NCBI GenBank assembly: GCA_030639955.1
Contig: DAOWKH010000045.1
Location: 1-24,830, forward strand
DNA from: Candidatus Omnitrophota bacterium
GTDB taxonomy: Bacteria > Omnitrophota > 4484-213
Length of the DNA stretch: 24,830 bases
Reading direction: 5' to 3'
How positions within the stretch are numbered: the stretch's first letter is position 1; each line of letters begins with the position of its first letter. The notes beneath the pieces are model-generated. The model made no database searches, had not been told where the DNA came from, and was given only the letters and a program-made list of their open reading frames with translations. Of this stretch, positions 336 through 24,830 are shown piece by piece. The position numbers and the translations under genes are program-made.

Positions 336-384
336 CTCCTTTCCTCACTCGCCGCAGGCGAGAGCCTGAGCGAAGCGAAGGATA
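336..384 (-). repeat. 49-nt leader element including the SD, copy 1 (secD)
   Basis: 46/49 identical to 14604-14652. Confidence 0.9.
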
Positions 385-408
385 GAAATTTATTTGCTCT
401 TTCTATTT

Positions 409-439
409 ATCGCAGTAATCTTTCTTAATCTGTGTAATC
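409..439. repeat. AATC-anchored 9-nt-period repeat patch, copy 1
   Basis: taatctgtgtaatc (426-439) is the exact reverse complement of 14870-14883. Confidence 0.6.
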
Positions 440-463
440 AAGGTGTCCTTCTTAGGACGCCTT

Positions 464-492
464 ATTATAGCAAATTCCCCCCCAACTTGCAA
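464..492 (-). promoter_or_regulatory. Sigma70-type promoter for secD
   Basis: Minus strand TTGCAA (492-487), 17-nt spacer ending in TGc, TATAAT (469-464). Confidence 0.7.
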
Positions 493-494
493 AT

Positions 495-521
495 AAAAAA
501 GGGCAGGTTAACTGCCCTTTT
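495..521 (-). terminator. Intrinsic terminator after the 547-aa gene
   Basis: Stem aaaagggcag/ctgccctttt with 5-nt loop; T6 tract follows on the minus strand. Confidence 0.75.
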
Positions 522-536
522 GTTAAATCTCTAATA

Positions 537-560
537 TGAGTGAGGTTTCGCCTCACTCAA
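537..560. repeat. Short palindrome tgagtgagg-tttcg-cctcactca; empty version of the folD insertion
   Basis: 9-bp stem; same arms as 3191-3238. Confidence 0.8.
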
Positions 561-569
561 GCAAAGTTA

Positions 570-2213
570 TTATATCGTTACTACTGTTTCTCCTTCTTGA
601 TATGCTTTTTCTACTCTTTGGTAGCTTTCTAAATCTTCTGTGGTCGTCTCAGCAGTCCAATCAAATTCTTTCTTTCTTACCTTTGCAAGTATCTGTTCTG
701 GGTTTTTAATTCGGTTATTAGCTAAGAACATTCCCAAATATCTCTCATATTCATCAGAAACTTCAGGAGCAAAACCATCCACTACAGCAAACAGAACAAG
801 CCGTAGTTTATTCTCACTTTCTTTAACTGCAGGTATTTTTGTTATTTGCGAAGAGTCGCTTTCTTCTAATCGTTTCTCCCATTTCTTTATATCCTTATTT
901 TTCTTTCTGTATGCTAAATTAATTACAGCACTAAATTGGCTGGGGGGAAATCCCAAATCAAGATATTTAGCAATTCTCTCTTCAGCATCATCAGGACCTA
1001 TAACCCCAACCGATGGATCTCCTTCTTTTAAACCCAAGACATTTCTTATTTTCTGCCTCAGTTCTCTATCTTCATAAGGAACAACAAAATTCAGGAAGTT
1101 CCCGGTTGCAAATAAACCCTCCTTTATTCCAAGAAGTGCTTCCTTAATCCCTAATATTGGTTTGCCTTCTTCATCAAAGAGAGAAGTAGCATCTACAAAA
1201 CGATGGTACGGAGCATGTATGGACTCTGCATCTGAAATAAACATACTGTGAAAATCTTCTGCAGAAGCCCCAACAAGAGGTTGGTAATATTCAACAACCA
1301 TTCCTTTTATTTTCTCACTTGCCGTTTCACCGGCTAAAATTTCTGGAGCTAATTCGGCAAAGACAGAACGGGCAGAGTTAAAGATTTTTGTGTTTTCTTT
1401 TCTCTCGGCTCGCCATTTCTCAATTTGTTCAAAAATTTCTCTTTTTTCAGACGCCTGCTTTTGTAAATCCTCCTCAATTCCCTCGCGTATTTTTTTCTTT
1501 CCTATGGACAAATCCCCTGCTAATCCTGACTTCGCCTCTGCTATTGCCATTACTGTTTTCGAACTCTCAGCTTGATAGAATCCAGGTCGTAAGAATCTAG
1601 AAAAAACGCCCCTGTCCTGTAAATGCTTTATTGTTGCCTCAATTTGTTCTTCTTTTTTCTTAAGTTGATTACCGAAGTCGGCAATTCCATCTGCTAAATC
1701 CCTGTTTCTTTTTCTAATCTTATCCTCTAATCCCAAAAGAATTTCTAATGTATTTTCAGCTGGTCGTCCGCCGGAATTTATAACATTCAGTAAAATTGAA
1801 GTAGATACTCTCACCCTTTCGGTATCCTCTTTTGTCTGGCTAAGTAATTCTTTTATTAAAATCTCTCTAAAACCCGGAGCGACTCCTCCTACAATCTGAT
1901 CTTCTACTTCCCCCATCCTTTCTTCACTACCTCCAAAAGCTGAATCTATCCGTGTTCTAAATTGAGGCATACCTGTAGTACCAGAGTATTTGTTGGCGAG
2001 TTCTATTCCTTTAGTCGCCCTATATGCTCGCTTTACATGGCTTTCAAAAGGCGCATCTTCAGGACCCATACCGACTCCATCAGGATTTCGGCTCGCTCCT
2101 GACAACATCTTCATCCCATAAGCTGGATAAGGAACGCTGGTTAACAAAAAAGCAATAGCTATTGTTAGTGACCAAAATTTCATTGACTTTAATAAGTTCA
2201 TTTTAGCCCCCAT
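570..2213 (-). CDS. Uncharacterised secreted protein (547 aa; start possibly ATG 2201)
   Basis: Long ORF with a signal-peptide-like N-terminus (KSMKFWSLTIAIAFLLTSVPYPAYG), charged helical mid-region, own promoter and terminator. No family recognised. Confidence 0.8.
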   Translation of the reverse strand: MGAKMNLLKSMKFWSLTIAIAFLLTSVPYPAYGMKMLSGASRNPDGVGMGPEDAPFESHVKRAYRATKGIELANKYSGTTGMPQFRTRIDSAFGGSEERMGEVEDQIVGGVAPGFREILIKELLSQTKEDTERVRVSTSILLNVINSGGRPAENTLEILLGLEDKIRKRNRDLADGIADFGNQLKKKEEQIEATIKHLQDRGVFSRFLRPGFYQAESSKTVMAIAEAKSGLAGDLSIGKKKIREGIEEDLQKQASEKREIFEQIEKWRAERKENTKIFNSARSVFAELAPEILAGETASEKIKGMVVEYYQPLVGASAEDFHSMFISDAESIHAPYHRFVDATSLFDEEGKPILGIKEALLGIKEGLFATGNFLNFVVPYEDRELRQKIRNVLGLKEGDPSVGVIGPDDAEERIAKYLDLGFPPSQFSAVINLAYRKKNKDIKKWEKRLEESDSSQITKIPAVKESENKLRLVLFAVVDGFAPEVSDEYERYLGMFLANNRIKNPEQILAKVRKKEFDWTAETTTEDLESYQRVEKAYQEGETVVTI

Positions 2214-2240
2214 TTTTCCAAAAGTAACAAGAAAAGTTTA

Positions 2241-2365
2241 AAATGTCTAATTGCTCTAATTTCTAATGTCTAATCAATGACTAATGTCCAATGACCAATA
2301 ATTGTTTAGACATTTGTCATTAGACATTCTTTAGGTCAATTAGGTTAATTAGTCATTAGACATTT
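2241..2365. repeat. Inverted heptamer-array element (aatgtct / agacatt units)
   Basis: Left arm aatgtct, aattgct, aatttct, aatgtct, aatgact, aatgtcc, aatgacc; right arm agacatt, tgtcatt, agacatt, agtcatt, agacatt. Perfect 11-bp terminal inverted repeat aaatgtctaat/attagacattt. Confidence 0.85.
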
Positions 2366-2384
2366 ATGATATTCTATTAGAAAA

Positions 2385-2413
2385 ATTCTACCATTCTTCT
2401 CTTTCTTTGTCAA
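2385..2413 (-). promoter_or_regulatory. Sigma70-type promoter for the 547-aa gene
   Basis: TTGACA (2413-2408), 17-nt spacer ending in TGg, TAGAAT (2390-2385). Confidence 0.75.
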
Positions 2414-2470
2414 GTGTTTTTTTTATTACTTTTTAAAGATGTTTAAAAAGGGAGAAAAATAAAAAATGCC

Positions 2471-3304
2471 TCAAACCTGCTTCTTAAAGCACTCCAAAGT
2501 ATTTCTCATCAACATTGCCGTGGTTATTGGACCCACACCCCCGGGCACAGGAGTGAGAAATTTTGCCTTTTTCTCTACCTCTCTATCCACATCTCCGACA
2601 ATTTTATCCTTTAGATAATTAATCCCCACATCAATCACTACTGCTCCTTTTTTGACCATTTCGGGTTTAATAAAATTTGGCTTACCCGTAGCCACAATCA
2701 GAATATCTGCCCTCTGGGTATGCGAAATTAAATCTTTGGTAGCAATGTTGCAGCTCGTAAGCGTAGCCATTTTATCTAAAAGAAGATTAAAAAGCGGCTT
2801 GCCCACGCAATCACTGCTGCCAATAATTACTACTTCTTTTCCGCTGAGCTTTATCTTTGCCTCTTTTAGTATCTCTATTATTGCTAAAGCAGTGCAAGGA
2901 ATTATATTGCTCTTGGGGTGCATTCCCTCTACATCCTTTTCTAATTTCAAAGCCGAAAAAACTTTTTTGGGCTGGATATGCGCAGGTAAAGGAAGATGAA
3001 TAATTATACCATTGATGCTTTTATCATTGTTTAATTTCTGGATGAAAGCGATTAGAGCTTTTTGCGAAATATCTTTGAAACCCCGGGCAGAATATTTTAT
3101 TCCTATTTCACAAACCTTTTTTTGAACGCGGGCATAAATACGAACATCCTTATTGTCTCCCACCTGAACACTTACCAAATGGGGAACCTTTGAGTGAGGT
3201 TTCCCTCGGCTTCGCCGAGAGGCGAGCGCCTCACTCAACTTCGCCAATTCTCCCTTAACCTCTTTTTTTATCCTTTCCGCAATTGGCCGACAAGATAGAA
3301 TCAT
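2471..3304 (-). CDS. folD: Methylenetetrahydrofolate dehydrogenase, FolD family
   Basis: Motifs GIIIHLPLP, KDVEG, VIIGSSDCVGKP, VIDVGIN, TPVPGGVGPITTAMLMRN. ATGA overlap with the upstream gene. Confidence 0.93.
   Translation of the reverse strand: MILSCRPIAERIKKEVKGELAKLSEALASRRSRGKPHSKVPHLVSVQVGDNKDVRIYARVQKKVCEIGIKYSARGFKDISQKALIAFIQKLNNDKSINGIIIHLPLPAHIQPKKVFSALKLEKDVEGMHPKSNIIPCTALAIIEILKEAKIKLSGKEVVIIGSSDCVGKPLFNLLLDKMATLTSCNIATKDLISHTQRADILIVATGKPNFIKPEMVKKGAVVIDVGINYLKDKIVGDVDREVEKKAKFLTPVPGGVGPITTAMLMRNTLECFKKQV
3190..3238. repeat. Nested palindrome in frame within folD
   Basis: ttgagtgagg...cctcactcaa outer stem enclosing ctcggc-ttc-gccgag; encodes roughly LSEALASRRSRGKPHSK. Confidence 0.85.
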
Positions 3305-3804
3305 ATTAGTTCCCTTGCCCCTTTTGCCCCTGCCTGCAGGAGAATACGGGCAATTTTCAAATCACTGAGTAAATTTTTATTTCCTTTTTTCGTCAAAAAA
3401 GGAATCAACTTTAAGCCCTGCTCACAATTTTTACAAATTGCAACAGGGATTTTCTGCATCATTTGTTTTGCTTTTTTTCTTTTTAGTAAAGAACTACTTT
3501 TGTTAAAAAAAACAGAAACTGCCTTCGCATCCTCATCAATAAGTTTAATCAATTCTTTTTTTATTTTGGTTGCTTTTTGTAAAATTTTGCGGATTTGGGG
3601 AGAGCTTGCCCTGTTAAATTGCTCGCCTTTCAGGCGAGCACCCCGTTTTGACGGGGATTTAACAGGGTGAACACTACAGTTGGCGACCATTTGCAATAAA
3701 CTAATCCCCAATGCCCCGCTCAAAGCCGCCGCACTCCCTCCGCCGGGAGCAGGTTTCTTCGCCCCTAAATCATCTAAAAATTTCTCTAAAGTTATTTTTT
3801 TCAT
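3301..3804 (-). CDS. fchA: Cyclodeaminase/cyclohydrolase family protein (FTCD C-terminal domain, FchA-like)
   Basis: N-terminal [26 protein letters not shown] and NLLSDL motifs; adjacent to folD. Shorter than typical members at the C-terminus. Confidence 0.8.
3609..3667. repeat. Three-way-junction palindrome in frame within fchA
   Basis: ccctgttaaat...atttaacaggg enclosing tgctcgcct-ttc-aggcgagca and ccccgt-tttg-acgggg. Confidence 0.9.
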
Positions 3805-4361
3805 TTCTTAATTAGTGCTAACACCTCCTGCCTTGTCTTCTCATTTTTCTTAAATGCCCCTCTTAAGGCGCTTGTAGTTACCAGTGTCCCCGGTTTTTTA
3901 ATTCCGCGCATCACCATACACAGATGCTCGGCTTCGATTATTACCAATACCCCTTTGGGCTGTAATTTTTTTACTATTAAATCGGCTATTTGATTGGTCA
4001 ACCTCTCCTGTATCTGGAGACGCTGAGACAAAAGAGATAAAACTCGCACAATCTTGCTCAATCCCACTACCTTATTATTGGCCGGAATATAGGCAATATG
4101 CGCCTTTCCCACAAAGGGGAGAATATGGTGTTCACAAATCGAGAAAAATGGAATATTCCTTAACAGAATTATCTCGTCATAACTCTCGGAAAATGTTTTT
4201 TTTAATTCCTGGGCGGCATCTTTTTCATAGCCCTGAAAAATCTCCGCACACATTCGGGCAACCCGTTCGGGCGTATCTTTAAGCCCTTCTCTTTTTGCAT
4301 CCTCGCCAATGGCTTCTAAAAATATTCTTACCGCTTGCTCAATTTTCTTTTTATCCATCAT
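3801..4361 (-). CDS. folE: GTP cyclohydrolase I
   Basis: [55 protein letters not shown]. Confidence 0.97.
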
Positions 4362-5740
4362 TTTCCTATGCAGAACCGACTAAAAATTCTCTCCAAAATA
4401 TCATCGCTTGCGGTCTCGCCACTAATCTCTCCCAGACAATCAATTGCCTCTTTTAGGTCCACGGCTAAAAATTCTTCGCTCAGCTTTTTTTCTATTCCCT
4501 GCTTAAAGTTTATCAGTGCCTGTTTTGCTTTTATCAAGCTTCCTTTCTGGCGGAGATTAGAAATTAGCACCTCGCTTGCTGAACTGCATACCTCTCCCTG
4601 CCAAACAGAATTAGTAATCGCCTTATCTAATAACGGCAAATTCCTTTCCTCGGTTGCCGAAATACTTACGAGCTCTGCTTCTAAATCTAAATCCTGGCAG
4701 AGCTTCCGGGGAGAAACTTTCTGGGGTAAATCAATTTTATTAATTATCACGAGCAACTTCTTACCCTTGATTTCTTTGGCAATCTGTTTATCTTCTTTGG
4801 CAATATCTGTAGAGCCATCAATTATAAATAGAATCAGGTCTGCTTTTTTTAAAGAATTCTGACTGCGGATAATCCCCTCTTTCTCTACAACGCCTTCGCT
4901 TTCCCTTATGCCGGCAGTATCTACAAGACAAAAAGGAATTCCCTTTAAGTCAATTATTTCTTCAACTGTGTCGCGGGTCGTTCCAGGCACTGGAGTTACA
5001 ATGGCGCGGTCTTTTTTCAACAAAACATTAAAAATGCTTGACTTCCCCACATTCGGCTTGCCGCAGATGGCAGTCAGAATTCCCTTTCTCAAAATAATCC
5101 CTTGTTCTGCCTTCTCTAAGATTTTCTCAATCTTTGCCTTTGCTTTCTCTGTCTTTCTTAAAATCTCTTCCGGCGAAACAAAAGGGATATCCTCCTCGGG
5201 AAAATCTATTTCGGCCTCAATCTGCGTCCTTATATCCAACAAACTCTCTCTAATTTCTCTAATTTTAAGCGATAAATGTCCCTCTAATTGCCCTACTGCT
5301 GCCCTCAGACCGGCCTCGGTCTTTGCCTGAATAATGCTTAAAACCGCCTCGGCTTGAGAAAGGTCAATGCGTCCATTCAGAAATGCTCTTTTGGTGAACT
5401 CGCCGGGCTCGGCTAATCGCACTCCGTTTTCAATGACTAAATCTAAAATTTTCTTTAAAACAACAATCCCGCTGTGGCAGTTAATTTCAACAGTATCTTC
5501 TCGGGTATAACTCTGGCTTGCAAACATTACGCTTAACAGCACTTCATCAATTATTCTGCCTCGGGATTCTATGATATGTCCATAATGTAATTTATGACTT
5601 TCAAATCTAAATGGCTTTTTTTCTTGGGGAGAGCGAAAAATTTTATCGGCAACAAGAAAAGCTCTCTTGCCGCTTATGCGCACAATCCCAATCCCTCCCT
5701 CTCCTAAAGGAGTGGAGATAGCAGTAATGGTATTGTTCAT
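4358..5740 (-). CDS. mnmE: tRNA modification GTPase MnmE/TrmE
   Basis: [58 protein letters not shown]-terminal FSRFCIGK. Confidence 0.98.
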
Positions 5741-5744
5741 ACTT

Positions 5745-5854
5745 CAAAACCAAATACCAAATATCAAATATCAAAAACACATATTAAAAATGTAAAAATA
5801 TTTTTTGTATTTTTGGTTTGTATATTTGATTTTTTATTTTTGATTTTTGATATT
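5745..5854. repeat. Inverted heptamer-array element (caaatat / atatttg-atttttg units)
   Basis: Arms caaatac-caaatat-caaatat-caaaaac and atatttg-atttttt-atttttg-atttttg. Inner core shared with 21097-21236. Contains the folC stop codon. Confidence 0.8.
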
Positions 5855-7066
5855 CTTTATCGCTTCTCCCGCTAAATAAAATGAGCCGCTGATTAAAATT
5901 AGGGTATTGGCTGAAGCACCTTTGTAGGCAAGATTTAAGGCCTCTTTTATATTTCTTGCTCCTTCTCCTTGCTCGCCGCTTCTTCTTCTTAACCCTTTTA
6001 TTGTCTCACAGCGTCGGTTTTTAAAGCGGGTAAAGATTATCCTTTTGCAAGCGGGGAAAATAACCCTGCTCATTCCTTCAATATCCTTATCTCTGCAGGC
6101 GGAAAAGATGAGCACTATTTCAGCAGAGGGAAACCGTTTTTCTATCGCCTTTTTCAAAAATTCTGTCGCTGCGGGATTATGGGCTCCATCTAATAAAATT
6201 TGATATTTTTTATTTTGTTTAATGATTGAAATTTCTTCTAATCTTCCCGGCCAATATGCATTTCTAAGTCCTTGTTTTATAGCTCTTTGCGAAACTGGGA
6301 ATTTTTCGCTTAATTTCTCCAAAACTTTAAGTGCTAAGAGGGCATTCTCCGGTTTTCTTAGCGACACATCCCGAGCCTCAAATAACTGAGCATCTTTCTC
6401 TTTACATCTCTTTTCAATTATCTTTCTAACCTCTTTCTTCTGCGGAGCAGAGACCACCTGCGCGCCTCTTTTGATTATCCCCACCTTTTCTTTAGCAATT
6501 TTAGTTAAGCTATTACCTAATTCCTGACAATGCTCAAGAGCAATAGGAGTGAGGACACAGAGCAAAGGGTTAACAACATTAGTGGCATCCAATCTTCCTC
6601 CCATTCCTGTCTCAATAATTGCTAAATCTACCTTTTGTTGAGCAAAATAGAGAAAAGCGGCAGCGGTGAGCGCTTCAAAAAAACTGAGTTTGTCTCTGTT
6701 TTTCCTTTCTATCTGAGCAATTCTGTCTATTGAATCGGCAAAATCCTTTCTGGAAATTATGTCCTTAAATAACCCCGTTGAGGAATTAAGCCAGGAGCCG
6801 CGAATCCTTTCTCTTGGACAGATTAAATGCGGAGAAGAAAAAAAACCGACTTTATAACCCTCTTCTTTTAATACCCTGAAAATAAAATTTCCTACTGTCC
6901 CCTTTCCATTGCTACCAGTAATATGGACGGACAAAAATTTTCTCTGCGGATTTCCTACTGCTTGCAAAAAATTTCTTATCCTCTTTAGGTTAAAACTACA
7001 AGTTCCTCTATTTTGCTCATAATTAGAAAGAGAATTGAGGTAGGTTATTGCCTGGGAGTAAAGCAT
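5834..7066 (-). CDS. folC: Bifunctional folylpolyglutamate synthase/dihydrofolate synthase
   Basis: VHITGSNGKGT, FSSPHL, ETGMGGRLDATNV, WPGRLE, LDGAHNP, SGSFYLAGE. Start moved to ATG 7066 (MLYSQAITYL) because the track's first 11 codons lie inside the tRNA. Confidence 0.95.
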   Translation of the reverse strand: MLYSQAITYLNSLSNYEQNRGTCSFNLKRIRNFLQAVGNPQRKFLSVHITGSNGKGTVGNFIFRVLKEEGYKVGFFSSPHLICPRERIRGSWLNSSTGLFKDIISRKDFADSIDRIAQIERKNRDKLSFFEALTAAAFLYFAQQKVDLAIIETGMGGRLDATNVVNPLLCVLTPIALEHCQELGNSLTKIAKEKVGIIKRGAQVVSAPQKKEVRKIIEKRCKEKDAQLFEARDVSLRKPENALLALKVLEKLSEKFPVSQRAIKQGLRNAYWPGRLEEISIIKQNKKYQILLDGAHNPAATEFLKKAIEKRFPSAEIVLIFSACRDKDIEGMSRVIFPACKRIIFTRFKNRRCETIKGLRRRSGEQGEGARNIKEALNLAYKGASANTLILISGSFYLAGEAIKNIKNQK

Positions 7067-7069
7067 AGT

Positions 7070-7154: not shown

Positions 7155-7162
7155 ATTCTGAA

Positions 7163-10720: not shown

Positions 10721-10885
10721 GAGAGGCTCGGCTTGTGTCGCTAAGAAGCCGTTGCGCAGACTGAGCGGGCATGGTTTTGCCGAAGCGTAGCGAAGGCAAA
10801 GAGCGAAGCCGAGCACCGAGCAGCAATTTGCTCGCTGGGCAAATTGACTGCGTGCTTCGTGCGACCAAGCCGAGCCGAGCTCTGC
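10721..10885. other. GC-rich multi-branched palindromic element between lepB and pgsA (candidate ncRNA or MITE-like element)
   Basis: Outer stem ggctcggcttg(t)gtcgc / gcgaccaagccgagcc, further stems gaagc/gcttc and gcgcag/ctgcgt, and two inner hairpins. Confidence 0.65.
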
Positions 10886-14603: not shown

Positions 14604-14652
14604 CTCCTTTCCTTCCTCGCCGTAGGCGAGAGCCTGAGCGAAGCGAAGGATA
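14604..14652 (-). repeat. 49-nt leader element including the SD, copy 2 (porin)
   Basis: 46/49 identical to 336-384. Confidence 0.9.
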
Positions 14653-14782
14653 ATCTTTTGTTTGTCCTTTCCTTACTTGCCACCCCGACGTATCGTCGGG
14701 CTAAACTTATTTTTTCTCTTCTCTTCTATTGAAAATAGAAAGCAGATGCCTACGGGACGCATCCCTTTCTACTAATAAGGAT

Positions 14783-14810
14783 ATTTTACCCTTTTTCTTT
14801 TTTTTGTCAA
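14783..14810 (-). promoter_or_regulatory. Sigma70-type promoter for the porin gene
   Basis: TTGACA (14810-14805), 16-nt spacer, TAAAAT (14788-14783); A-rich upstream. Confidence 0.65.
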
Positions 14811-14821
14811 GAACTTTTTTT

Positions 14822-14883
14822 GAGATTGCTGAAAAATTCAGCAATCTCTGATTACAGCGATTAAAAACCGATTACACAGATTA
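14822..14883. repeat. Perfect 12-bp hairpin plus AATC-anchored 9-nt-period repeat patch, copy 3
   Basis: gagattgctgaa-aaa-ttcagcaatctc (14822-14848), then gattacagcgatta and gattacacagatta. Confidence 0.6.
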
Positions 14884-14890
14884 AAAAAAC

Positions 14891-15355
14891 TCATTGCTCT
14901 CTTTCTTCTTTTATTGGACCCGACTTAGGAGTTAAAAAGATAGTAAGCACTGTTCTGGTCATCATTGGTTTTAAGGTAATAATACAGCTTTCTCTGCTCT
15001 TCTCAAAATTAAGGATTATTTCATTATGCTCAACAATATTTATTAAACCCCAATTATACAAGGGCATCTGTTCTCTATAGAATTCAATAATTTTTTTAGC
15101 ATTGGCCTTACCAACATATTTGAATAGCCCCATCCGTGTAAAGTCATTCTGAAAAACAAAGGATTCTTGTCTATTGAGTTTAAAACGGTAAGGAACAGGA
15201 AGGTCTTCAAATTTTAAATCCGAAGATACCTCTAATTTCTCTTCCTCGACTACCACTCCTAATTCTGCATCCCTTTGTCTATCCATTGTGGCACAACCAC
15301 CATTGGCAAAGAGCAAAGAGCAAAGAGCAAAGAGCAAAGAGATCTTTTTTATCAT
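14891..15355 (-). CDS. Uncharacterised lipoprotein
   Basis: Basic N-terminus, hydrophobic core, lipobox-like NGG-C21; SD GGAGG upstream; own promoter. Confidence 0.75.
   Translation of the reverse strand: MIKKISLLFALCSLLFANGGCATMDRQRDAELGVVVEEEKLEVSSDLKFEDLPVPYRFKLNRQESFVFQNDFTRMGLFKYVGKANAKKIIEFYREQMPLYNWGLINIVEHNEIILNFEKSRESCIITLKPMMTRTVLTIFLTPKSGPIKEEREQ
15306..15340. repeat. Perfect heptamer tandem repeat (gcaaaga)x5 in the lipoprotein signal peptide
   Basis: Read directly; encodes SLLFALCSLLFA. Confidence 0.95.
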
Positions 15356-15394: not shown

Positions 15395-15423
15395 AGCATA
15401 GCAAAATTTATTTCTTTTGTCAA
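15395..15423 (-). promoter_or_regulatory. Sigma70-type promoter for the lipoprotein gene
   Basis: TTGACA, 17-nt spacer ending in TGc, TATGCT. Confidence 0.65.
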
Positions 15424-15424
15424 G

Positions 15425-15480
15425 CCCTGTTAAATAAAATCTTTGATTTTCTTTTGCTGAAAGCAAAAGATTTAACAGGG
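15425..15480. repeat. Three-way-junction palindrome, intergenic copy after the truA stop
   Basis: ccctgttaaat...atttaacaggg enclosing aaaatc-ttt-gatttt and cttttgct-gaa-agcaaaag. Confidence 0.9.
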
Positions 15481-16281
15481 TCAAGTATATTTAATTTTTA
15501 GCAAGCAAAGCCCCTGGGGTGGTGCGGTCTCCCCGGCTTTTCTCCGCTCGCCGGCTCTTAAAACCTCTTTTATCCCCTTCGTAGACCTACTGGTTATTTT
15601 TCCTCGGTTTATATCAATCAGGGTGCCAACAATATTGCGCACCATTTTATACAGAAAGCCATCGGCTTCAATGGTGATAGTAATCAGTCCACAGTCCACA
15701 GTCCACAGTCCACAGTTATCATAACTAATTTTTTTCACAGAGATATTTTTTATTGTGCGGATGGTATCCTTTGCTCCTGAGCCGCTGGCGCAGAAAGAGC
15801 TAAAATTATGCCTCCCCAATAGATACTTTGCCTCCCTTTTGAGCAGTGCTATACTCAGTGGATAGGGATAAAAATATGTCCGCCGTTGTAAAAAAGGCGA
15901 AGGCAAAGGATTGTTTAGGATTGTATATCGATAGACCTTGCTCTTTGCTGAGTAACGGGCGTGAAATTTTTGAGCTACCTCTTCTGTCTTTTTGGCTACA
16001 ATGTCATCAGGAAGCAAAGAATTTAACCCCCGCTGCAGAGAATCAATACTTAGAGGATTTTTTGTCTTAAAATTTGCTACCTGCTCCAGGGCATGCACCC
16101 CGGCATCCGTTCTCCCACTACCAATAAGAGTTATTTTTTCTTGAAGTATTTTCTCTAAATTTCTTTCAATCGTTTCTTGAATTGTTTTAACTGTTGACTG
16201 TCGACTGTTAACTGTTGACTGCCTTTGCCATCCCCCATAATTCGTCCCATCGTATTCAAGAGTCAACTTGATGTTGCGCAT
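15481..16281 (-). CDS. truA: tRNA pseudouridine(38-40) synthase
   Basis: LEYDGTNYGGWQ, GSGRTDAGVHA (catalytic Asp), FHARYSA, GFLYKMVRNIVG, TAPPQGLCL. Confidence 0.97.
   Translation of the reverse strand: MRNIKLTLEYDGTNYGGWQRQSTVNSRQSTVKTIQETIERNLEKILQEKITLIGSGRTDAGVHALEQVANFKTKNPLSIDSLQRGLNSLLPDDIVAKKTEEVAQKFHARYSAKSKVYRYTILNNPLPSPFLQRRTYFYPYPLSIALLKREAKYLLGRHNFSSFCASGSGAKDTIRTIKNISVKKISYDNCGLWTVDCGLITITIEADGFLYKMVRNIVGTLIDINRGKITSRSTKGIKEVLRAGERRKAGETAPPQGLCLLKIKYT
15685..15716. repeat. Heptamer tandem repeat (cagtcca)x4.6 in frame within truA
   Basis: Encodes NCGLWTVDCGL. Confidence 0.9.
16189..16223. repeat. Heptamer tandem repeat (Ractgtt)x5 in frame within truA
   Basis: aactgtt gactgtc gactgtt aactgtt gactgcc; encodes RQSTVNSRQSTV. 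Confidence 0.88.
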
Positions 16282-16282
16282 C

Positions 16283-17284
16283 CTAATTTTGGCATACTAA
16301 TTCAGCGATTTGCACCGCATTCAGAGCTGCTCCCTTTCTCAGATTATCAGAGACGCACCAGAGCCAGAAACAATTCTTATTAAAATGGTCTTCGCGTAAC
16401 CTTCCCACAAAGACCTCATCTCTGCCTTGGGCGTCTAACGCTAAAGGAAAATCTTGAGGATCTTTAAAAAATACAACCCCTTCTGATTCTCCCAGCACCT
16501 CTTCTATCTCCTTTAAACAAACACCCTTCTTTGTCCTAAAATAAATTGCTTCTGAATGCGAAACAAACACCGGAACCCTCACACAGGTAGAACTAATCTT
16601 AATAGAGGAGTCCTCAAAGAGCTTGTGAGTTTCATGGACCGTCTTCCATTCTTCAGTAGTGTAATTATATTCTCCGAAATCGCCTATTTGCGGAATGGCG
16701 TTGAAGGCTGATTTCTGCCTTCGCCCTGCGGGCTTCGGCGGACAATGCTTGCTCCGTATTGCTTCTTCTGTTTCCTCCCACAACTGCTCCACTGCCTTTT
16801 TCCCGGCCCCGGAAACCGCCTGGAAACTAGTAAGAATTATCTGCTCCAAACCAAATCTTTTATAAATCTCATTCAGAGCCACAACAAGCTGAATGGTGGT
16901 GCAATTGGGATTAGCAATTAGACCCTTGTGGCTTTTAACCGCCTGCGGATTTACCTCCGGAACAATCAGGGGAACATCCGAACGCAGGCGAAAATCGGCG
17001 CCGTTATCGATTACTATTGCTCCGCTTTTAATCGCCTGCTTAGCATATAAGACAGATGCTCCCTTCTCTCCCTCAGTGCCGGCAAAAAGAGCAATGTCGG
17101 TATCTTCAAAACTTTCTGGAGTAATTGTTTTGACGCTATAGGTTTGTCCATCAACATCTATATCGCGCGCACTGCGGGCAAAAACCTGCAATTCACCGAG
17201 AGGAAAGTTCCTCTGCTTCAAAACCCTCAGCATCTCAATCCCAACCATCCCTACACCAATCACCGCAACATTATATTTTTTCAT
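16283..17284 (-). CDS. asd: Aspartate-semialdehyde dehydrogenase
   Basis: VAVIGVGMVG, VPLIVPEVN, IANPNCTT (catalytic Cys), QAVSGAG, CVRVPVFVSHSE, SDNLRKGAALNAVQIAE. Confidence 0.96.
   Translation of the reverse strand: MKKYNVAVIGVGMVGIEMLRVLKQRNFPLGELQVFARSARDIDVDGQTYSVKTITPESFEDTDIALFAGTEGEKGASVLYAKQAIKSGAIVIDNGADFRLRSDVPLIVPEVNPQAVKSHKGLIANPNCTTIQLVVALNEIYKRFGLEQIILTSFQAVSGAGKKAVEQLWEETEEAIRSKHCPPKPAGRRQKSAFNAIPQIGDFGEYNYTTEEWKTVHETHKLFEDSSIKISSTCVRVPVFVSHSEAIYFRTKKGVCLKEIEEVLGESEGVVFFKDPQDFPLALDAQGRDEVFVGRLREDHFNKNCFWLWCVSDNLRKGAALNAVQIAELVCQN
16714..16748. repeat. YGTCC-tagged REP-like hairpin in frame within asd
   Basis: 16714-16744 is 29/31 identical to intergenic 22964-22994. Confidence 0.88.
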
Positions 17285-18758: not shown

Positions 18759-18763
18759 AGGTT

Positions 18764-18791: not shown

Positions 18792-18795
18792 TGAC

Positions 18796-19788
18796 TTATT
18801 TCCCTCTTATTCTTTTTTCAATCTCCTGAGCGACTTGTGGATTTTCTTCCAAGAATTTCCTCGTCTGTTCCTTCCCCTGACCAATTTTTTTCTCTGCGTA
18901 AGAAAACCAAGTCCCCGCTTTTTGAATAATTCCTCTTTCTAAACCGGCGTCAATAATTCCACCTTCATAAGAAATCCCTTTATTATACATAATATCAAAT
19001 TCGGCAATCTTAAAAGGAGGAGCAACTTTGTTCTTTACTATTTTTGCCTTTACCCGGTTACCTACGATATTCTCACCTTCTTTGAGTTGGGCAATCCGCC
19101 GCAAATCAATGCGCACAGAGGCATAAAATTTCAGTGCCCTGCCTCCGGGAGTGGTCTCGGGATTGCCAAACATCACTCCAATCTTCATCCGAATTTGATT
19201 GATAAAGATAAGCGATGTTTTTGATTTGGAAATTGCCGCGGTAAGTTTTCTTAGTGCCTGGGACATTAATCTTGCCTGCAGACCGATATGGGTGTCGCCC
19301 ATCCCTCCCTCAATCTCTACGCGCGGAACAAGAGCGGCTACCGAATCAATAACAATCACATCAACAGCATTGCTGCGGATTAGGGTCTCGGCAATCTCCA
19401 ATGCCTGCTCGCCGGTATCGGGTTGAGAAATCAGTAAATCCTTGAGATTTACTCCCAGTTTTTGGGCATAAGCAGGATCCACGGCGTGCTCAGCATCAAT
19501 AAATGCCGCTGTTCCTCCCCGCTTTTGGGCCTGGGCAACAACACTTAGACATAATGTTGTCTTTCCGCTGGATTCCGGACCAAATACCTCCATCACTCTC
19601 CCGCGTGGCGCCCCTCCTACGCCCAGGGCCAAATCTAAGGCCAAACTTCCCGTAGGAATAATCGGAATATCCAGTATTTTGCCCTCTCCTAATTTCATAA
19701 TCGAGCCCTTGCCAAACTGCTTCTCAATCTGAGCAAGGGCTAAATCTAGAGCCCTCTGTTTATTCATCTGTTCATCTTTCTTCTCCAT
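18796..19788 (-). CDS. recA: Recombinase A
   Basis: [55 protein letters not shown]. Confidence 0.99.
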
Positions 19789-19820
19789 TTCTCCTCCTAG
19801 TCAACTTTGGCATTCTGCTA

Positions 19821-19969
19821 TAATTTTCAATTACCAATTTTCAATTACCAATGAATTTTCAATTTTAGAATTTTCAATTGGAAATTAAATAAATGCCCGT
19901 CCTCCGCAGTAGCCTGCTACGGAGGATGGAAAAATTAACTGAAAATTAGAAATTGAAAACTGAAAATTA
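19821..19969. repeat. Inverted heptamer-array element (aattttc-aattacc / gaaaatt units) with a GC-rich REP-like hairpin at its centre
   Basis: Outer taattttca/tgaaaatta; centre gcccgtcctcc-gca-gtagcctgctac-ggagga (19895-19926). Confidence 0.85.
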
Positions 19970-19995
19970 CTTACTTGGTGCTTGTAATTTGTGAT

Positions 19996-21078
19996 TTAAG
20001 AACTCTTCTTCTCTATTTCTCGAAACCTTTGCAGAAGTTTCTTTTGCTCGCTATTCAAATGCGTAGGCGTTTGGACAACTATCTTTATTATCTCATCTCC
20101 CTGTCCATATCCCTGTATGTCTTTAATCCCTTTTCCGCGCAGACGAAATATTTTATGGCTTTGCGTGCCCGGGGGAATCTTTATCTTCACCTTTCCTTTC
20201 AGTGTGGGCACTTCAATCTCTGCTCCTAAGGCGGCCTGGGAAAAACTAAGTGGAACCTCGCAAACTATATTATTCCCTTCACGTCTGAAAATTTTATGTG
20301 GCTGAACATAGATTAAGAGATATAAATCCCCTCTGCGGCCACCTTTAATCCCGGTTTCTCCTTCGCCAGCAACCCTTAATTGTGACTCATTTTGGACACC
20401 GGCGGGAATCTTGACCTTAATTTTGTGGGTATCCTGGATCCTCCCTTCTCCTCTACATTTAGAACAGGGAGTTTGAATAATGCTCCCTTCTCCCCGACAA
20501 CGCGGGCAGGTGCGGGTAAGGTTAAAAAATCCCTGGGTTACTCGGACCTCTCCTCTCCCTCCGCAATCAGGACAGCTCACCCTCCTGGTGCCCGGCTCAA
20601 TACCCTCCCCTTTGCATTCAGGGCAGGAATCATAACGCGAAAGATTTATTATCTTCTCGGTCCCAAAAGCCGCCTCTTCAAAAGAAATCTCTACGCTGTA
20701 TTGCAGGTCTGAACCTCTTCTTTTGCCTGTTCCTTCTCTTCTCCCTCCAAAGATATTGCCAAAGAGATTATCAAAGATATCGCCAAAACCTGTCCCGGTA
20801 AATTCGCGGGCAAAGGTTTCAAAGCCGCTAAATCCGGTCTCAAATCCGCCGCCTACACCCGAATGTCCAAACTGGTCATAGGCGGCTCTCTTCTGCGAAT
20901 CGCTCAAAACCTCATAGGACTCGGAGACCTCCTTAAACTTCTCTTCGGTTTCCTTGTGATTATGCGGATTTTTATCGGGATGATATTGGACAGCTAATTT
21001 TCGGTAGGCACGCTTTATCTCTTCCGCAGAGGCCTCTCTGCTTACCCCTAATACTTCATAATAGTCGCGCTTAGCCAT
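19996..21078 (-). CDS. dnaJ: Chaperone DnaJ
   Basis: J domain with HPD, G/F-rich region, four CxxCxGxG zinc-finger motifs, C-terminal domains. Confidence 0.98.
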
Positions 21079-21096
21079 TTTCCTCGCTTTGCTCGT

Positions 21097-21236
21097 CAGA
21101 AATCAAAAATCAAAGACCAAAAATCAAATACACATACTTAAAAATGTAAAAACTTAAAAGAATTAAGAAAAATTCAAGATATTTTTGTATATTTGGTTTG
21201 TGTTTTTGATATTTGATATTTGATATTTGATATTTA
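21097..21236. repeat. Inverted heptamer-array element (caaaaat / atatttg units)
   Basis: Arms cagaaat-caaaaat-caaagac-caaaaat-caaatac and (atatttg)x4, ending at the accA stop; homologous to 5745-5854. Confidence 0.85.
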
Positions 21237-22187
21237 TTGTTCCCATTCCCCCATCTTCCTGAATTTGTTATACCTTTTTTGCAGGAGTTCGTCTTTGGGG
21301 AGAGGAGAGAGTTCATTTAGATATCTATTTATCTTCTTACCAATTCTCACTGAGATCTCTTCGGAATTGCGGTGCGCTCCGCCAATCGGTTCGGGAATTA
21401 TCTCATCAACAACCCCTAAGTCCAATAAATCCTTAGCCGTAAATTTTAAGGCATCAGCGGCTTGATCTGCTTTTGCCCTATCTCTCCACAGGATTGCCGC
21501 ACAGCCCTCGGGAGAGATTACCGAGTAATAAGCATTCTCTAAAATGGCTATCTTATCGCCAATTCCAATTCCCAGAGCGCCCCCGCTCCCGCCTTCGCCA
21601 ATAATAAATATAAGGATAGGCACAGCAATATTGAACATCTCTCTTAGATTGTTGGCAATCGCCTCGGCCTGTCCGCGTTCCTCGGCCTCTATTCCCGGGA
21701 AAGCCCCGGGCGTATCAATAAAGACAACTATCGGCAGCTCAAATCTCTCTGCTAATTTCATTATCCGCAATGCCTTGCGATACCCCTCCGGATTTGCACA
21801 GCCAAAATTATATCGCAAATTTTCTTTAGTATCTTTTCCCTTCTGATGCCCGATTAGCACCAGCCGTTTTTCTTTCAGCTTGGCCAAACCGGTTATAATC
21901 GCCGCATCATCGCCAAATTTGCGGTCGCCATGCAATTCAATAAAATCAGTAAACAGCAGATTTATATAGTCGGAGGTATGCGGACGCTGGGGATGGCGGG
22001 CGACCTGGGCTCTCTGCCAGGGGGTTAGATTGGCAAAAATCTTTTTGGTCGTCTGCTTTAATTTCCTCTCTAATTTATCTATCTCAGGTTCAATATCTCT
22101 TAAAGAGGGCTCTGCGGAAGCGCTGATGCTTTTCAAACGTTTAATCTCCTCTTCCAACTCTATTATCGGTTTCTCAAAATCTAACAC
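21234..22187 (-). CDS. accA: Acetyl-CoA carboxylase carboxyltransferase subunit alpha
   Basis: LDFEKPI, ARHPQRP, ELHGDRKFGDD, PEGYRKALR, DTPGAFPG..AEERGQ, GEGGSGGAL, YSVISPEGCA. Confidence 0.98.
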   Translation of the reverse strand: MLDFEKPIIELEEEIKRLKSISASAEPSLRDIEPEIDKLERKLKQTTKKIFANLTPWQRAQVARHPQRPHTSDYINLLFTDFIELHGDRKFGDDAAIITGLAKLKEKRLVLIGHQKGKDTKENLRYNFGCANPEGYRKALRIMKLAERFELPIVVFIDTPGAFPGIEAEERGQAEAIANNLREMFNIAVPILIFIIGEGGSGGALGIGIGDKIAILENAYYSVISPEGCAAILWRDRAKADQAADALKFTAKDLLDLGVVDEIIPEPIGGAHRNSEEISVRIGKKINRYLNELSPLPKDELLQKRYNKFRKMGEWEQ

Positions 22188-22951
22188 GCCTCCACCTCTA
22201 AATTACTGTGCACATTCTGCACATCGTCGCAGTTCTCTAAATCCTCAATCAGGGCTAAAACCGGCTTTGCCTTTTCAGAGTCCAATTTTATGCGGTTATT
22301 GGGGATTAAACTTAGGCCGACAAAAGAGTATTTGATGTTGCTGTTTTTTATTACTTCTTTTATCTTTTCAAAATCCCTAACAGAAGTGATAATTCTATAT
22401 TCTTCTTCAGAGCTTTGCTCCTCGCTGTTGACTGTTGACTGTTGACTGTTGACTGTTTCTATATCTTCAGCACCCGCTTCTATGACAAGAGTAAAAAGTT
22501 TATCCTCTTCTACCTCTTTTCTATCAATGATAATTAGTCCCTTCTTTTTAAACATATAGGTAACTGCACCGGCAGAGGCAAAATTTCCTCCTTTTTTGGA
22601 AAAGATATTTCTTATTTCGGCGGCGGTTCGGTTTTTATTGTCAGTAAGGCATTCTACTACTATTGCTATTCCTCCCGCGGCATAACCCTCATAGGTTACC
22701 TCTTCATAACGGACCCCGGGCAGTTCGCCGGTGCCCTTCTTGATTGCCCTTTCAATATTCGCTGAGGGCATATTCGCCTCTTTAGCCGCAGTAATTGCCT
22801 GACGCAGGCGGGGATTGGTCTTTTCGTCTCCGCCGCCATCGCGGGCGGCGACAGTGAGCTCGCGAATCAATTTGGTGAACAGCTTTCCCCGCTGGGCATC
22901 AACTAATGCCTTTTTATGCTTTATTCCTGCCCATTTAGAATGTCCGGACAC
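22181..22951 (-). CDS. yebC: YebC/PmpR family protein
   Basis: MSGHSKWAGIKHKK, NPRLR, TYEGY..GG, TDNKNRT, DDVQNVHSN. GTG start. Confidence 0.96.
   Translation of the reverse strand: MSGHSKWAGIKHKKALVDAQRGKLFTKLIRELTVAARDGGGDEKTNPRLRQAITAAKEANMPSANIERAIKKGTGELPGVRYEEVTYEGYAAGGIAIVVECLTDNKNRTAAEIRNIFSKKGGNFASAGAVTYMFKKKGLIIIDRKEVEEDKLFTLVIEAGAEDIETVNSQQSTVNSEEQSSEEEYRIITSVRDFEKIKEVIKNSNIKYSFVGLSLIPNNRIKLDSEKAKPVLALIEDLENCDDVQNVHSNLEVEAC
22425..22457. repeat. Heptamer tandem repeat (ctgttga)x4.7 in frame within yebC
   Basis: Encodes TVNSQQSTVNS; same unit as truA 16189-16223. Confidence 0.92.
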
Positions 22952-22963
22952 AGCTCCTCGCTT

Positions 22964-22997
22964 TCCGCCTTCGCCCTACGGGCTTCGGCGGACAGGC
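22964..22997. repeat. YGTCC-tagged REP-like hairpin upstream of yebC
   Basis: tccgcc-ttc-gccc-tac-gggc-ttc-ggcgga-caggc. Confidence 0.88.
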
Positions 22998-23007
22998 ACT
23001 CACTCGT

Positions 23008-23085
23008 CAGAAGTCAGACAACAGAAATCAGAAGACAGATTTTTTATTTTCTGTTTTCTGTCCTCTGTTTTCTGTCCTCTGTTTT
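23008..23085. repeat. Inverted heptamer-array element (cagaaRW / tYYtctg units)
   Basis: cagaagt cagacaa cagaaat cagaaga caga ... ttttctg ttttctg tcctctg ttttctg tcctctg. Confidence 0.85.
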
Positions 23086-23111
23086 TAACATTTTGGGTTG
23101 GGGTTAATTTT

Positions 23112-23294
23112 CTAAAACTCTAAAGAGACATCTTCTATTATTTGCTTTGCGTCTGTTCCTTTCTTTACTAAAGCATCTTTAATCATAGGAGCTACAATCA
23201 GAATCGCCGCAATAATAGCGGCAATGATTATCGCATACTCAATCATTGTCTGGCCTTTCTTTCCCCCAAATCTTTCGCATAATAACTTGCGCAT
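23112..23294 (-). CDS. Flp family (Tad) major pilin
   Basis: 60 aa, basic leader, KKG|QTMIEYAIII Flp motif, single hydrophobic helix; SD GGGGG upstream. Confidence 0.85.
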   Translation of the reverse strand: MRKLLCERFGGKKGQTMIEYAIIIAAIIAAILIVAPMIKDALVKKGTDAKQIIEDVSLEF

Positions 23295-23309
23295 CTTTAC
23301 CCCCTTTTT

Positions 23310-23546
23310 TTATTCTATCTCCCCTTTCACCCTACCAACATACTCCTCCACCACCGGTGTGGGTTGACCCGGTTGACCTGATTCTATAAATATCGTCCAG
23401 AGCAAAATCGCTACTAAAGTAAATACCACAAAAACAATCGCATATTCAATAGCGGCTTGTCCACCGAAGCCCGCAGGGCGTAGGTGGGCTTGTCCGCCTT
23501 CGCTAAAGCTACGGCGGATAAATCCGCATGGAGAGAATTTAGACAT
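23310..23546 (-). CDS. Flp/TadE-like pilin with repeat-derived leader (start uncertain: ATG 23546 or TTG 23561)
   Basis: G|QAAIEYAIVFVVFTLVAILLW pilin motif. Confidence 0.7.
   Translation of the reverse strand: MSKFSPCGFIRRSFSEGGQAHLRPAGFGGQAAIEYAIVFVVFTLVAILLWTIFIESGQPGQPTPVVEEYVGRVKGEIE
23454..23526. repeat. Two tandem YGTCC-tagged REP-like hairpins in the pilin leader
   Basis: ggcttgtcc direct repeat at 23454-23462 and 23487-23495, each followed by a bulged hairpin. Confidence 0.88.
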
Positions 23547-23551
23547 TTTAA

Positions 23552-23962
23552 TTAAGGACAACCGTCTTTGGTTAGCTCGCCTGTCTCATCTATATTTGGT
23601 TTACAATCATCTTTATATCTTCCGCTATTTCTTGTTGCTGTACAGTCAAATGTTGTTGCCGGAGTGCCAGTAGTAGTGCACTTATAATCTTTAAAATATT
23701 GTGCGGTCATTTCTACCTCTAAAATGGTATTGCAACCTCCAGCATCATTAAGAGCGCCACTGCAATCTATATACCCCGTAGTCGGATGGTCCAATTTATA
23801 CATCTTCTCAGCCATATACATTATGTATAGATTTGCCTCGGCTTCGCGCATCTTTCCTTTTTCTATGGTCTTGGTGTATTGGGGAATACCAATACCAGCC
23901 AGGATACCCAAAATAATAATTGTTACCAACAGCTCCACTAAAGTAAACCCCGTTTTTTTCAT
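23552..23962 (-). CDS. Type IV pilin / pseudopilin (N-methyl-Phe type)
   Basis: MKKTG|FTLVELLVTIIILGILAGIGIPQY, Cys-rich C-terminus. Start at ATG 23962 (SD GGAGG, ATGA overlap with the GT9 stop). Confidence 0.9.
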   Translation of the reverse strand: MKKTGFTLVELLVTIIILGILAGIGIPQYTKTIEKGKMREAEANLYIMYMAEKMYKLDHPTTGYIDCSGALNDAGGCNTILEVEMTAQYFKDYKCTTTGTPATTFDCTATRNSGRYKDDCKPNIDETGELTKDGCP

Positions 23963-24830
23963 TTCGCCTCCGTTTTTGCTGCCTGCAATACCTCCTCCAC
24001 ACTTATTCTCCGTAGGCACTCAAACCCCTTCTGGCAATTATGCGCCAGGCAGGGCGAACAATCGGGCGGATTGTGCAGAACAATATCATCTTTGCCGCGT
24101 GGGCCCCAGCGCTTCGGGCTCAGTCCGGGAAGGTTTCGGCCAAAGATTACCAGGCATCTTAAACCTACGGCAGTAGCAAGATGCACCGGTCCACTGTCAG
24201 TAGAGATAAGCAAAGAACATCTTTTAAATAAAGCCGCTAACTGCCCTAAATTGAGTTTACCGGTTAGATTAACAACCGGAACCTGCATCAATCTCTCCAT
24301 TGTCTGACCCAATTTTTCTTCTTCCTTACTCCCTACAATTATAATTTTTACCCTGTTAAATCCAGCGGTGTTCGGTGTTCGGTGTTCGGTGTTCGGCCGA
24401 TAACCGATAACCGATAACCGATAACCGAGTTTCGCAAACCTCTCTATCGGCCATCTCTTGGAAGGGCAACTGCTCCCGGGATGAATAGCAATCAACCGCT
24501 CCCCATCAACAAAATCCTCGTCTTCTTTCTTCACAAAAATAGAAAAATTTTTATCCTTTGTATCTGCCCCGATAGCCCGCACTAGATCTAAATTATATTC
24601 CAACTCGTGTTTTTCGCCTTTATATTTCTCGTCCTTTATTGCCTGATTCAGCAAAAATCCCCATTTGCGTTGATAACCTAAGCGATAAGTAATTCCGGCC
24701 AAAAAGGCAATTATATTCGACCTCTTTTTCGGATTTAAAACAACAGCTAAATCAAATTTCTTTTTCCTCAAATGGACAATAAATTTTAGCGTTCCCCAGA
24801 AACCGCTATCCTTTTTTTTATCATAAGTAA
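23959..24830 (-). CDS. Glycosyltransferase family 9 (LPS heptosyltransferase RfaF/WaaF-like), 5' end beyond the right edge
   Basis: FDLAVVL, HPGSSCPSKRWP, NLTGKLNLGQLAAL, ISTDSGPVHLATA, C-terminal CSPC...C. Frame stays open to base 24830. Confidence 0.88.
   Translation of the reverse strand, partial: TYDKKKDSGFWGTLKFIVHLRKKKFDLAVVLNPKKRSNIIAFLAGITYRLGYQRKWGFLLNQAIKDEKYKGEKHELEYNLDLVRAIGADTKDKNFSIFVKKEDEDFVDGERLIAIHPGSSCPSKRWPIERFAKLGYRLSVIGYRPNTEHRTPNTAGFNRVKIIIVGSKEEEKLGQTMERLMQVPVVNLTGKLNLGQLAALFKRCSLLISTDSGPVHLATAVGLRCLVIFGRNLPGLSPKRWGPRGKDDIVLHNPPDCSPCLAHNCQKGFECLRRISVEEVLQAAKTEAK
24366..24428. repeat. Back-to-back heptamer arrays (cggtgtt)x4 and (ccgataa)x4, in frame within the GT9
   Basis: Encodes GYRLSVIGYRPNTEHRTPNT; the arrays are imperfectly complementary (cgg/ccg pairs every 7 nt). 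Confidence 0.93.

Follow-up and report, generated by a model that had tools for sequence, protein, structure and literature searches.

Miniature hairpin-forming repeats between genes and, in frame, within protein genes of an Omnitrophota contig

The 24,830-nt contig DAOWKH010000045.1 of a Candidatus Omnitrophota bacterium (the whole of it, contig C112 of its bin, is called the window below) carries numerous very small structured repeats, both between its genes and in frame within them. Our reading, to which we give a probability of roughly 0.6, is that this lineage has been colonised by many very small, non-autonomous, hairpin-forming repeats that are copied as DNA by something acting in trans and are tolerated where they do little harm. 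An earlier note, made from the letters of the window alone, had proposed an invasion of this kind by families spread by a copy system encoded elsewhere. We followed it through the genome of the window (G000; a 953-kb bin of 133 contigs, with a completeness of 84.6%, 40% G+C and a full genome size of ~1.1 Mb), two congeners (G001 and G002) and members of sister genera (G003 and G004), and aligned the host proteins to orthologues from up to 30 relatives. The nearest RecA match, at 72%, is to bins labelled Candidatus Omnitrophota, as judged from RecA best hits only, and the stretch is contained in runs of a cold-seep metagenome study. All counts of coding versus intergenic copies are approximate, being based on a crude longest-open-reading-frame gene call.

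The five repeat types named in the note all recur genome-wide, and further families were found beside them. Tandem Repeats Finder (TRF) reports 18 tandem arrays in the window, 15 of them with a period of 7, 14 or 21, while 50 order-2 Markov simulations of the window give a mean of 1.0 arrays, 0.14 of period 7. Over the 953 kb of the bin, 221 of ~400 arrays have a period of 7, 14 or 21. Fourteen-mers with at least four copies make up 3.9% of the genome versus 0.14% in a Markov-3 simulation, covering 25% of the space between long open reading frames (ORFs) and 1.9% of ORF space; the long ORFs nevertheless hold ~45% of the repeat-covered bases and ~60% of the heptamer arrays. The 130 period-7 arrays fall into 48 unit classes, nine of which occur at five or more loci, compared with ~118 classes for random 7-mers. 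The density of heptamer arrays is 2.3 per 10 kb in the window's genome, 1.5-2.5 across it and its congeners, and 0.1 in G004. The excess is patchy, with most other relatives lying near the 0.34 per 10 kb of diverse bacteria (unbiased samples). An inverted pair of heptamer arrays was also seen in a spacer of a distant genome of the phylum (G008, L129, 481-599), so the architecture is present at low density outside the clade.

The families found, with their copy numbers in the window's genome, are as follows.

Leader family A: 10 genomic copies.
Palindrome B: 9 genomic copies, plus one with a nested insert.
Three-way junction C: 33 copies, almost all with a perfect fold of two hairpins on an outer stem of 11 bp.
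Tagged bulged hairpin H: about 20 copies, the tag being short and single-stranded.
Bulged hairpin D, with AT-rich heptamer arms: 26 copies.
15-nt element: 22 copies.
Family E, GATTACA-type 20-mers after variable hairpins: about 33 copies.
165-nt structured element: 9 copies.
270-nt structured element: at least 8 copies.

Stems covary in the C and H hairpins, and H is present in all three frames and on both strands. The note had called the families unrelated, which goes too far, as hairpin modules are common to several of them and they insert into each other. A GTAG or CGTC tag common to the families was considered and dropped (CGTAGG occurs at just 1.26 times its expected frequency, and GC-rich hairpins vary in their loops). 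In an Rfam scan only tRNA-Leu passed, and none of the repeats gave a match.

The distribution of the families among close relatives carries most of the argument. Both D, of whose 26 copies 22 agree completely over 17 nt, and the 15-nt element are restricted to the window's genome, with at most one copy in any of G001 to G004. The nine copies of palindrome B share one stem that occurs nowhere in G002 to G004, and a B variant with a wholly different stem but the same five-base loop is present in 31 copies in G001 and 33 in G002, with no sharing between these and the window's genome. Family C was limited to G000 to G003 and missing from 37 further genomes of the phylum; G004 lacks B, C, D and the 15-nt element altogether. 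Because the families are species-specific and near-identical within a genome, comparison of the sequences points to recent copying and not to local slippage. D, H and the 15-nt element occur in both orientations without strand bias, an argument for elements that act at the level of DNA. A strand bias had been considered as a sign of RNA-level or replication-linked action, and it is absent from these three. Orientation bias is weak in E (21:10) and clear only in A (9:1) and in the repetitive extragenic palindrome (REP) family R2 described below (7:1, few copies).

In the comparison with relatives that the earlier note had suggested, sites occupied in the window's genome are found empty elsewhere. 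Such empty sites were identified for the truA 15-nt element, the fchA, folD and GT9 inserts, the loop of a REP and the spacer between dnaJ and recA. The truA 15-nt site, empty in both congeners, shows no target duplication, as would be expected for insertion by an HUH-type enzyme; the REP-loop and fchA sites are ambiguous in this respect. Insertions often lie in the loops of other hairpins, and nesting at the apex is recurrent, in agreement with the note. The copy of B in folD contains an extra 24-nt hairpin; a 19-nt H-type hairpin sits in the loop of a REP adjacent to a REP-associated tyrosine transposase (RAYT) gene, whose orthologue in the congener G001 has the empty form; and the 15-nt element lies at the centre of a small palindrome within the 270-nt element.

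The same site may also be filled differently. At one and the same codon of folD each genome has its own B variant, and the dnaJ-recA spacer holds D with its arms in the window's genome, a REP in G001 and almost nothing in G004. With different occupants at orthologous sites, permissive sites appear to be refilled repeatedly by whichever family is currently active, with slippage then reshaping the arrays.

Could the elements have arisen where they stand, through slippage favouring 7-nt units and template switching at quasi-palindromes, followed by gene conversion? Heptamers are over-represented in many bacteria and vary between close relatives, and it has been proposed that they are linked to the footprint of the polymerase (PMC4692102). 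In our case the orthologous asd and truA loops carry arrays of different units and lengths, and C elements at orthologous sites keep their outer stem while the inner hairpins differ. Origin in place is nevertheless quite unlikely in our view: identical, non-repetitive cores of 15-33 nt stand at 22-26 unlinked loci of one species and at none in its congeners, the repertoire of heptamer units is restricted, composite units recur whole (D with its arms, and the arm pair found in GT9), and the 15-nt insertion in truA is clean and unrelated to its flanks.

The elements within protein genes of the window are listed here.

3189-3238, minus strand: in-frame copy of B in folD, with a 24-nt hairpin nested in it.
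3604-3672 (core 3609-3667), minus strand: three-way junction C, in frame in fchA.
15306-15341, minus strand: array of 5.1 copies of GCAAAGA within the ORF at 14891-15355, on the basis of the open frame only.
15579-15593, minus strand: 15-nt element, in frame in truA, encoding five extra residues (TSRST).
15685-15716, minus strand: heptamer array, 4.6 copies of CAGTCCA, in frame in truA, loop 2.
16190-16221, minus strand: heptamer array, 4.6 copies of ACTGTTG, in frame in truA, loop 1.
16712-16744, minus strand: H-type bulged hairpin, in frame in asd, 94% identical to 22962-22994.
22425-22457, minus strand: heptamer array, 4.7 copies of CTGTTGA, in frame in yebC.
23455-23523, minus strand: two H hairpins forming the leader of a Flp-type pilin, on the basis of the open frame only.
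24346-24428, minus strand: half arm of C with a two-armed heptamer element, in frame in GT9.

Residence in frame was checked against orthologues for asd, truA (three elements), yebC, folD, fchA and GT9, so the corresponding claim of the note is borne out for these six genes, and for the ORF at 14891-15355 and the pilin it stands on the open frame only. Two insertions had been noted in truA, where the orthologue alignment gives three. Loops 1 and 2 of truA have no counterparts in distant orthologues, and the sister genomes carry other units or a nested hairpin there; in the AlphaFold model of TruA (mean predicted local distance difference test, pLDDT, of 86) the three insert sites are the least confident coil segments. 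The insert in folD adds ~13 residues relative to G004 and distant orthologues, and the B variant that G001 has at this site is in the opposite orientation. In fchA the insert is a net 60 nt, absent from G003, with a diverged copy at the same site in G001. The 14-residue insertion in yebC is found only in G000 and G003 among seven aligned orthologues, and the GT9 insert, whose arms consist of ~4.5 copies each of CGGTGTT and CCGATAA and recur as a pair at no fewer than three other loci, adds a net 16 residues compared with G003, G004 and distant orthologues.

The claim that the elements add peptide loops to proteins therefore holds for truA, yebC, folD, fchA and GT9, but not for asd. The asd loop, which has inverted heptamer arrays in G002 and G003, is no longer than that of distant orthologues, so the element replaced loop sequence instead of adding to it. 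Among the cores of family C, 26 of the 33 have a length of 2 mod 3. By reasoning, a core of such length puts both TAA triplets of the outer arms into a single frame, so that four of the six frames stay open, and this rule would fit selection for translatable copies.

As regards the pilin locus, 23100-23561 (minus strand) holds two adjacent Flp-type pilin genes, the first with an H tag that encodes Gly-Gln-Ala at the predicted processing site and the second with a plain leader. A PF07963 match was obtained on another pilin ORF, 23552-24019.

That these tracts are artefacts of assembly or binning is extremely improbable. In its favour, the bin comes from a short-read metagenome and many of its contigs end in repeats; on the other side, the inserts preserve reading frames, the same loops are conserved or refilled in separately assembled relatives, a second public assembly encodes an identical Asd protein, and most of the stretch is present in two runs from different samples of one study.

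Outside the protein genes, the elements of the window are the following.

336-403, minus strand: leader A, copy 1, ending in the Shine-Dalgarno sequence of secD, 85% identical to 14604-14671.
537-560, no strand: palindrome B in its empty form, intergenic.
2242-2364, no strand: spacer preceding folD, with inverted heptamer arrays (TRF and inverted-pair evidence).
5745-5854, no strand: inverted heptamer arrays between the folC-like gene and mnmE.
14604-14671, minus strand: leader A, copy 2, before the Alginate_exp porin gene.
14822-14886, no strand: family E, a variable hairpin followed by two GATTACA-type 20-mers, adjoining a TTGACA box.
15425-15480, no strand: element C of an AT-rich subfamily, immediately after the truA stop codon.
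19819-19968, no strand: dnaJ-recA spacer, with a D hairpin (core 19897-19929) whose heptamer arms are AT-rich and inverted.
21092-21236, no strand: inverted heptamer arrays between accA and dnaJ.
22962-23088, no strand: 5′ of yebC, an H hairpin and then inverted heptamer arrays.

The first of these does not behave like the rest. Nine of the ten copies of leader A are in sense orientation directly 5′ of gene starts, including rpsB, dnaN, secD, the porin and membrane proteins; it also precedes one tRNA, and where a protein gene follows it provides the ribosome-binding site. Because of the 9:1 orientation and the position at 5′ ends, leader A looks like a 5′ leader or promoter cassette and not a mobile repeat, and the note's inclusion of this 49-nt leader among the mobile elements is not supported.

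It could be asked whether the other families are likewise selected host signals, such as terminators, mRNA stabilisers, leaders, or protein-binding or nucleoid sites, with the copies inside genes being incidental. Besides leader A and its abutment on the ribosome-binding sites of secD, porin, dnaN and rpsB, this agrees with the positions of C and E next to TTGACA-N17-TAnnnT boxes, with the C element directly 3′ of the truA stop codon (in G001 a C element with different inner hairpins is found at the same place) and with the covarying stems of C and H; such roles are known for REPs (PMC3733652). Most families, however, occur in both orientations, they are species-specific and missing from the sister-genus genome G004 and 36 other genomes of the phylum, copies lie within coding regions and within each other, and unrelated elements occupy the same spacer in sister species. 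We rate a general role as host signals as a shade more doubtful than origin in place. Promoter-like boxes often adjoin C and E copies, so some of the intergenic copies may have been recruited by the host; in the window, at 14794-14886 and 15407-15480, the E hairpin and C are each directly 5′ of the TTGACA-N17-TAnnnT promoter-like boxes of the next gene.

No mobiliser gene is present in the window, as the note had stated. The wider search found two ORFs elsewhere in the genome (220 and 231 aa, on contigs C104 and C42) that both score above the PF01797 cut-off. Both proteins have the HUH motif (as HIH) and the tyrosine motif RY(V/I)HLNP, and their only match in the PDB is 4ER8, the E. coli TnpA-REP; their scores against NCBIfam REP_Tyr_transpos are 70.6 and 64.9 bits, under the cut-off of 80. 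One of the genes, R1, lies between inverted copies of a 19-nt palindrome found at 6 loci, and the other, R2, is flanked by a 25-nt hairpin occurring at ~13 loci. R1 has an orthologue in G001 that is 92% identical, and R2 one in G002 at 80%, the G002 copy following a similar upstream gene; the REP stems of the RAYT orthologues are species-specific. G004 has no PF01797 match, no R2-type REP and almost no heptamer arrays. Judged from sequence, the two genes look like textbook, vertically inherited RAYT with their own REPs, distinct from the families of the window, and neither of the RAYT-flanking REP families is present in the window.

Of the enzymes that the note had suggested might lie elsewhere in the genome, then, two RAYT-type HUH genes were found, and there was no RVT_1 or TnpB-type match; nor did the 953-kb assembly give any rve or DDE_Tnp_1 match. 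The genome has two ORFs of ~307 aa in the Phage_integrase family (PF00589), which we take to be XerC/D-like. A gene on contig C50 between inverted C-containing repeats was considered as mobiliser and set aside, as it encodes a secreted transglutaminase-like protein and not a transposase. The proposed copy system elsewhere in the genome is thus supported insofar as the elements behave as copied DNA, but none of B, C, D, H and the heptamer arrays could be linked to the RAYTs.

Spread through RNA by a reverse transcriptase, or by some other enzyme that was not assembled, with the RAYT genes irrelevant, strikes us as improbable. The incompleteness of the assembly, with contigs breaking at repeats, leaves room for it. 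The small dispersed repeats of cyanobacteria, said to have been described by Elhai et al. in 2008, reportedly also have an unknown mobiliser, and we count this in its favour. The absence of RVT_1, TnpB-type, rve and DDE_Tnp_1 matches in the 953 kb argues against it, as does the lack of orientation bias relative to transcription in D, H and the 15-nt element.

Colonisation by repeats copied as DNA would, in our proposal, proceed in the following way. Several element types, namely simple palindromes, tagged bulged hairpins, the three-way junction and foldbacks with tandem 7-nt arms, would be copied by something acting in trans on DNA, and we infer that the copying may go through folded single-stranded DNA, in the manner of the "peel and paste" of HUH enzymes (RAYT or IS200-type). 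Copies would persist where they cause little harm, that is, in gene spacers, at the apices of other hairpins and in surface loops of proteins. Within proteins only stop-free inserts of 3n length would survive, to be translated as extra loop residues, and arrays would then lengthen, shorten and homogenise through slippage.

Several points weigh against this proposal. RAYT-REP pairs are normally specific for each other, and no RAYT or other gene was found flanked by B, C, D or H. PF01797 was tried as a predictor of heptamer density and rejected, the values being 0.21 arrays per 10 kb without it and 0.32 with it among 26 genomes of the phylum. The contrast with G004, which has neither RAYT nor the families, represents just one phylogenetic event. 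With an assembly that is 85% complete and breaks up at repeats, a mobiliser may simply have been missed. Mobility is deduced from comparison of genomes, no transposition event having been directly observed. Preferences of orientation and position, in A and in E and C beside promoter-like boxes, suggest function, and slippage alone could account for some of the variation among heptamers at orthologous sites.

A bolder version of the proposal holds that a copying activity not described so far moves units down to 15 nt without target duplication and remodels the loops of essential proteins. We put this forward tentatively and think it unlikely. The candidates would be domesticated RAYTs that also act on repeats other than their cognate REPs, or an enzyme not yet recognised. 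Such an activity would prefer hairpin apices and tolerant loops, and would time and again swap the occupant of a site for the current master sequence of the genome. Selection would favour translatable elements, as the length rule seen in family C suggests.

REP/REPIN-RAYT systems (Nunvar 2010, PMC2817692; Bertels and Rainey 2011, PMC3116915; Bertels 2017, PMC5581495) offer the closest mechanistic comparison. The likeness lies in short, GC-rich, multi-copy hairpins that insert without target duplication and into other repeats, and in a species-specific repeat that changes along with a single-copy, vertically inherited RAYT, two such pairs being present in the window's genome. The abundant families of the window differ in that they flank no RAYT and are not strictly extragenic, many copies being translated; they also include a 15-nt unit, a three-way junction and heptamer-armed foldbacks, and no GTAG/CGTC end tag was seen.

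The palindromic elements of Rickettsia (Ogata et al. 2000/2002, as summarised in PMC10969869) are ~150 bp long with a conserved peptide per family and an unknown mobiliser. They resemble our elements in being palindromic and in frame in unrelated housekeeping genes of a small genome, where they add peptides compatible with the fold. Against their ~100-150 bp, the elements described here measure 15-70 nt, belong to many families, are read in several frames, include tandem heptamers and come from an unrelated phylum.

Heptanucleotide repeats of the cyanobacterial short tandemly repeated repetitive (STRR) type were reportedly described by Mazel in 1990. The window shares with these and with the small dispersed repeats an excess of 7-nt units, some in inverted pairs, and very small dispersed hairpins, of 21-27 nt in Nostocales, that nest mutually and in arrays; as with STRR repeats, the same intergenic sites vary between close relatives. 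Those repeats are described as mainly intergenic, in the large genomes of Nostocales and Xanthomonas (PMC4692102), in contrast to the ~60% of arrays in long ORFs of a ~1-Mb genome seen here; the unit sequences also look unrelated, and orthologue-verified cases in frame in core enzymes are on our side of the comparison.

Like miniature inverted-repeat transposable elements (BOX, RUP, ERIC, Correia; PMC10969869), the repeats are non-autonomous, foldback-forming, modular and occasionally in frame in genes; unlike them, they are far smaller, and no target-site duplication or matching DDE transposase was found in the incomplete assembly.

Two larger structured elements deserve separate mention. The 165-nt GC-rich element, one of whose copies lies at 10721-10885 (plus strand) between lepB and pgsA, has a covarying outer stem, a nested hairpin in one copy and no Rfam match, and may be either a small RNA present in many copies or a foldback repeat of larger size. 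The 270-nt element, which was located at C23:508, C47:44 and 2174, C50:8051, C51:5101 and 7349, C82:3894 and C99:53, is often at contig ends, and some copies contain further nested hairpins or a C element. At C50:270-1900 two inverted 270-nt copies surround a 1.5-kb segment encoding the secreted transglutaminase-like protein mentioned above, which may be an invertible or composite unit.

The genes of the window are ordinary housekeeping genes and lie on the minus strand throughout.

Minus strand: secD, folD, fchA, folE, mnmE, folC-like ligase, tRNA-Leu.
Minus strand: two T2SSF-domain (tadB/C-like) genes, der, pgsA, lepB, lepA, porin.
Minus strand: truA, asd, leuB, leuD, recA, dnaJ, accA, yebC.
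Minus strand: Flp pilins, GT9 heptosyltransferase.

The GC skew of contigs simply tracks gene direction. With 868 of the 924 long ORFs on the G-rich strand of their contig, the coding-strand excess of G in this genome is unusually strong.

A full-text literature search returned no paper linking Omnitrophota with such repeats. We read the case as a selfish-DNA-like colonisation whose general kind is known, though this unusually miniature form of it is undescribed. What sets it apart from the known systems is that elements can be as small as 15 nt, that some are built as heptamer-armed foldbacks or three-way junctions, and that so many verified cases in frame come from a genome of ~1 Mb. Reduced genomes are usually expected to shed repeats, and here a quarter of the intergenic space and the loops of core enzymes are occupied by a dozen families of hairpin repeats, 15-80 bases long, and of heptamer arrays. 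The filled, empty and differently filled sites in sister species make the copying of very small repeats more tractable. In-frame colonisation by selfish repeats, known from Rickettsia, is here seen with elements of far smaller size and in a phylum not related to it, and inserts of this sort should be allowed for when genes are called or homologues sought among Omnitrophota proteins. If the undescribed copying activity were real, it would be a natural engine that reshapes the surface loops of essential proteins in a clade of reduced genomes.

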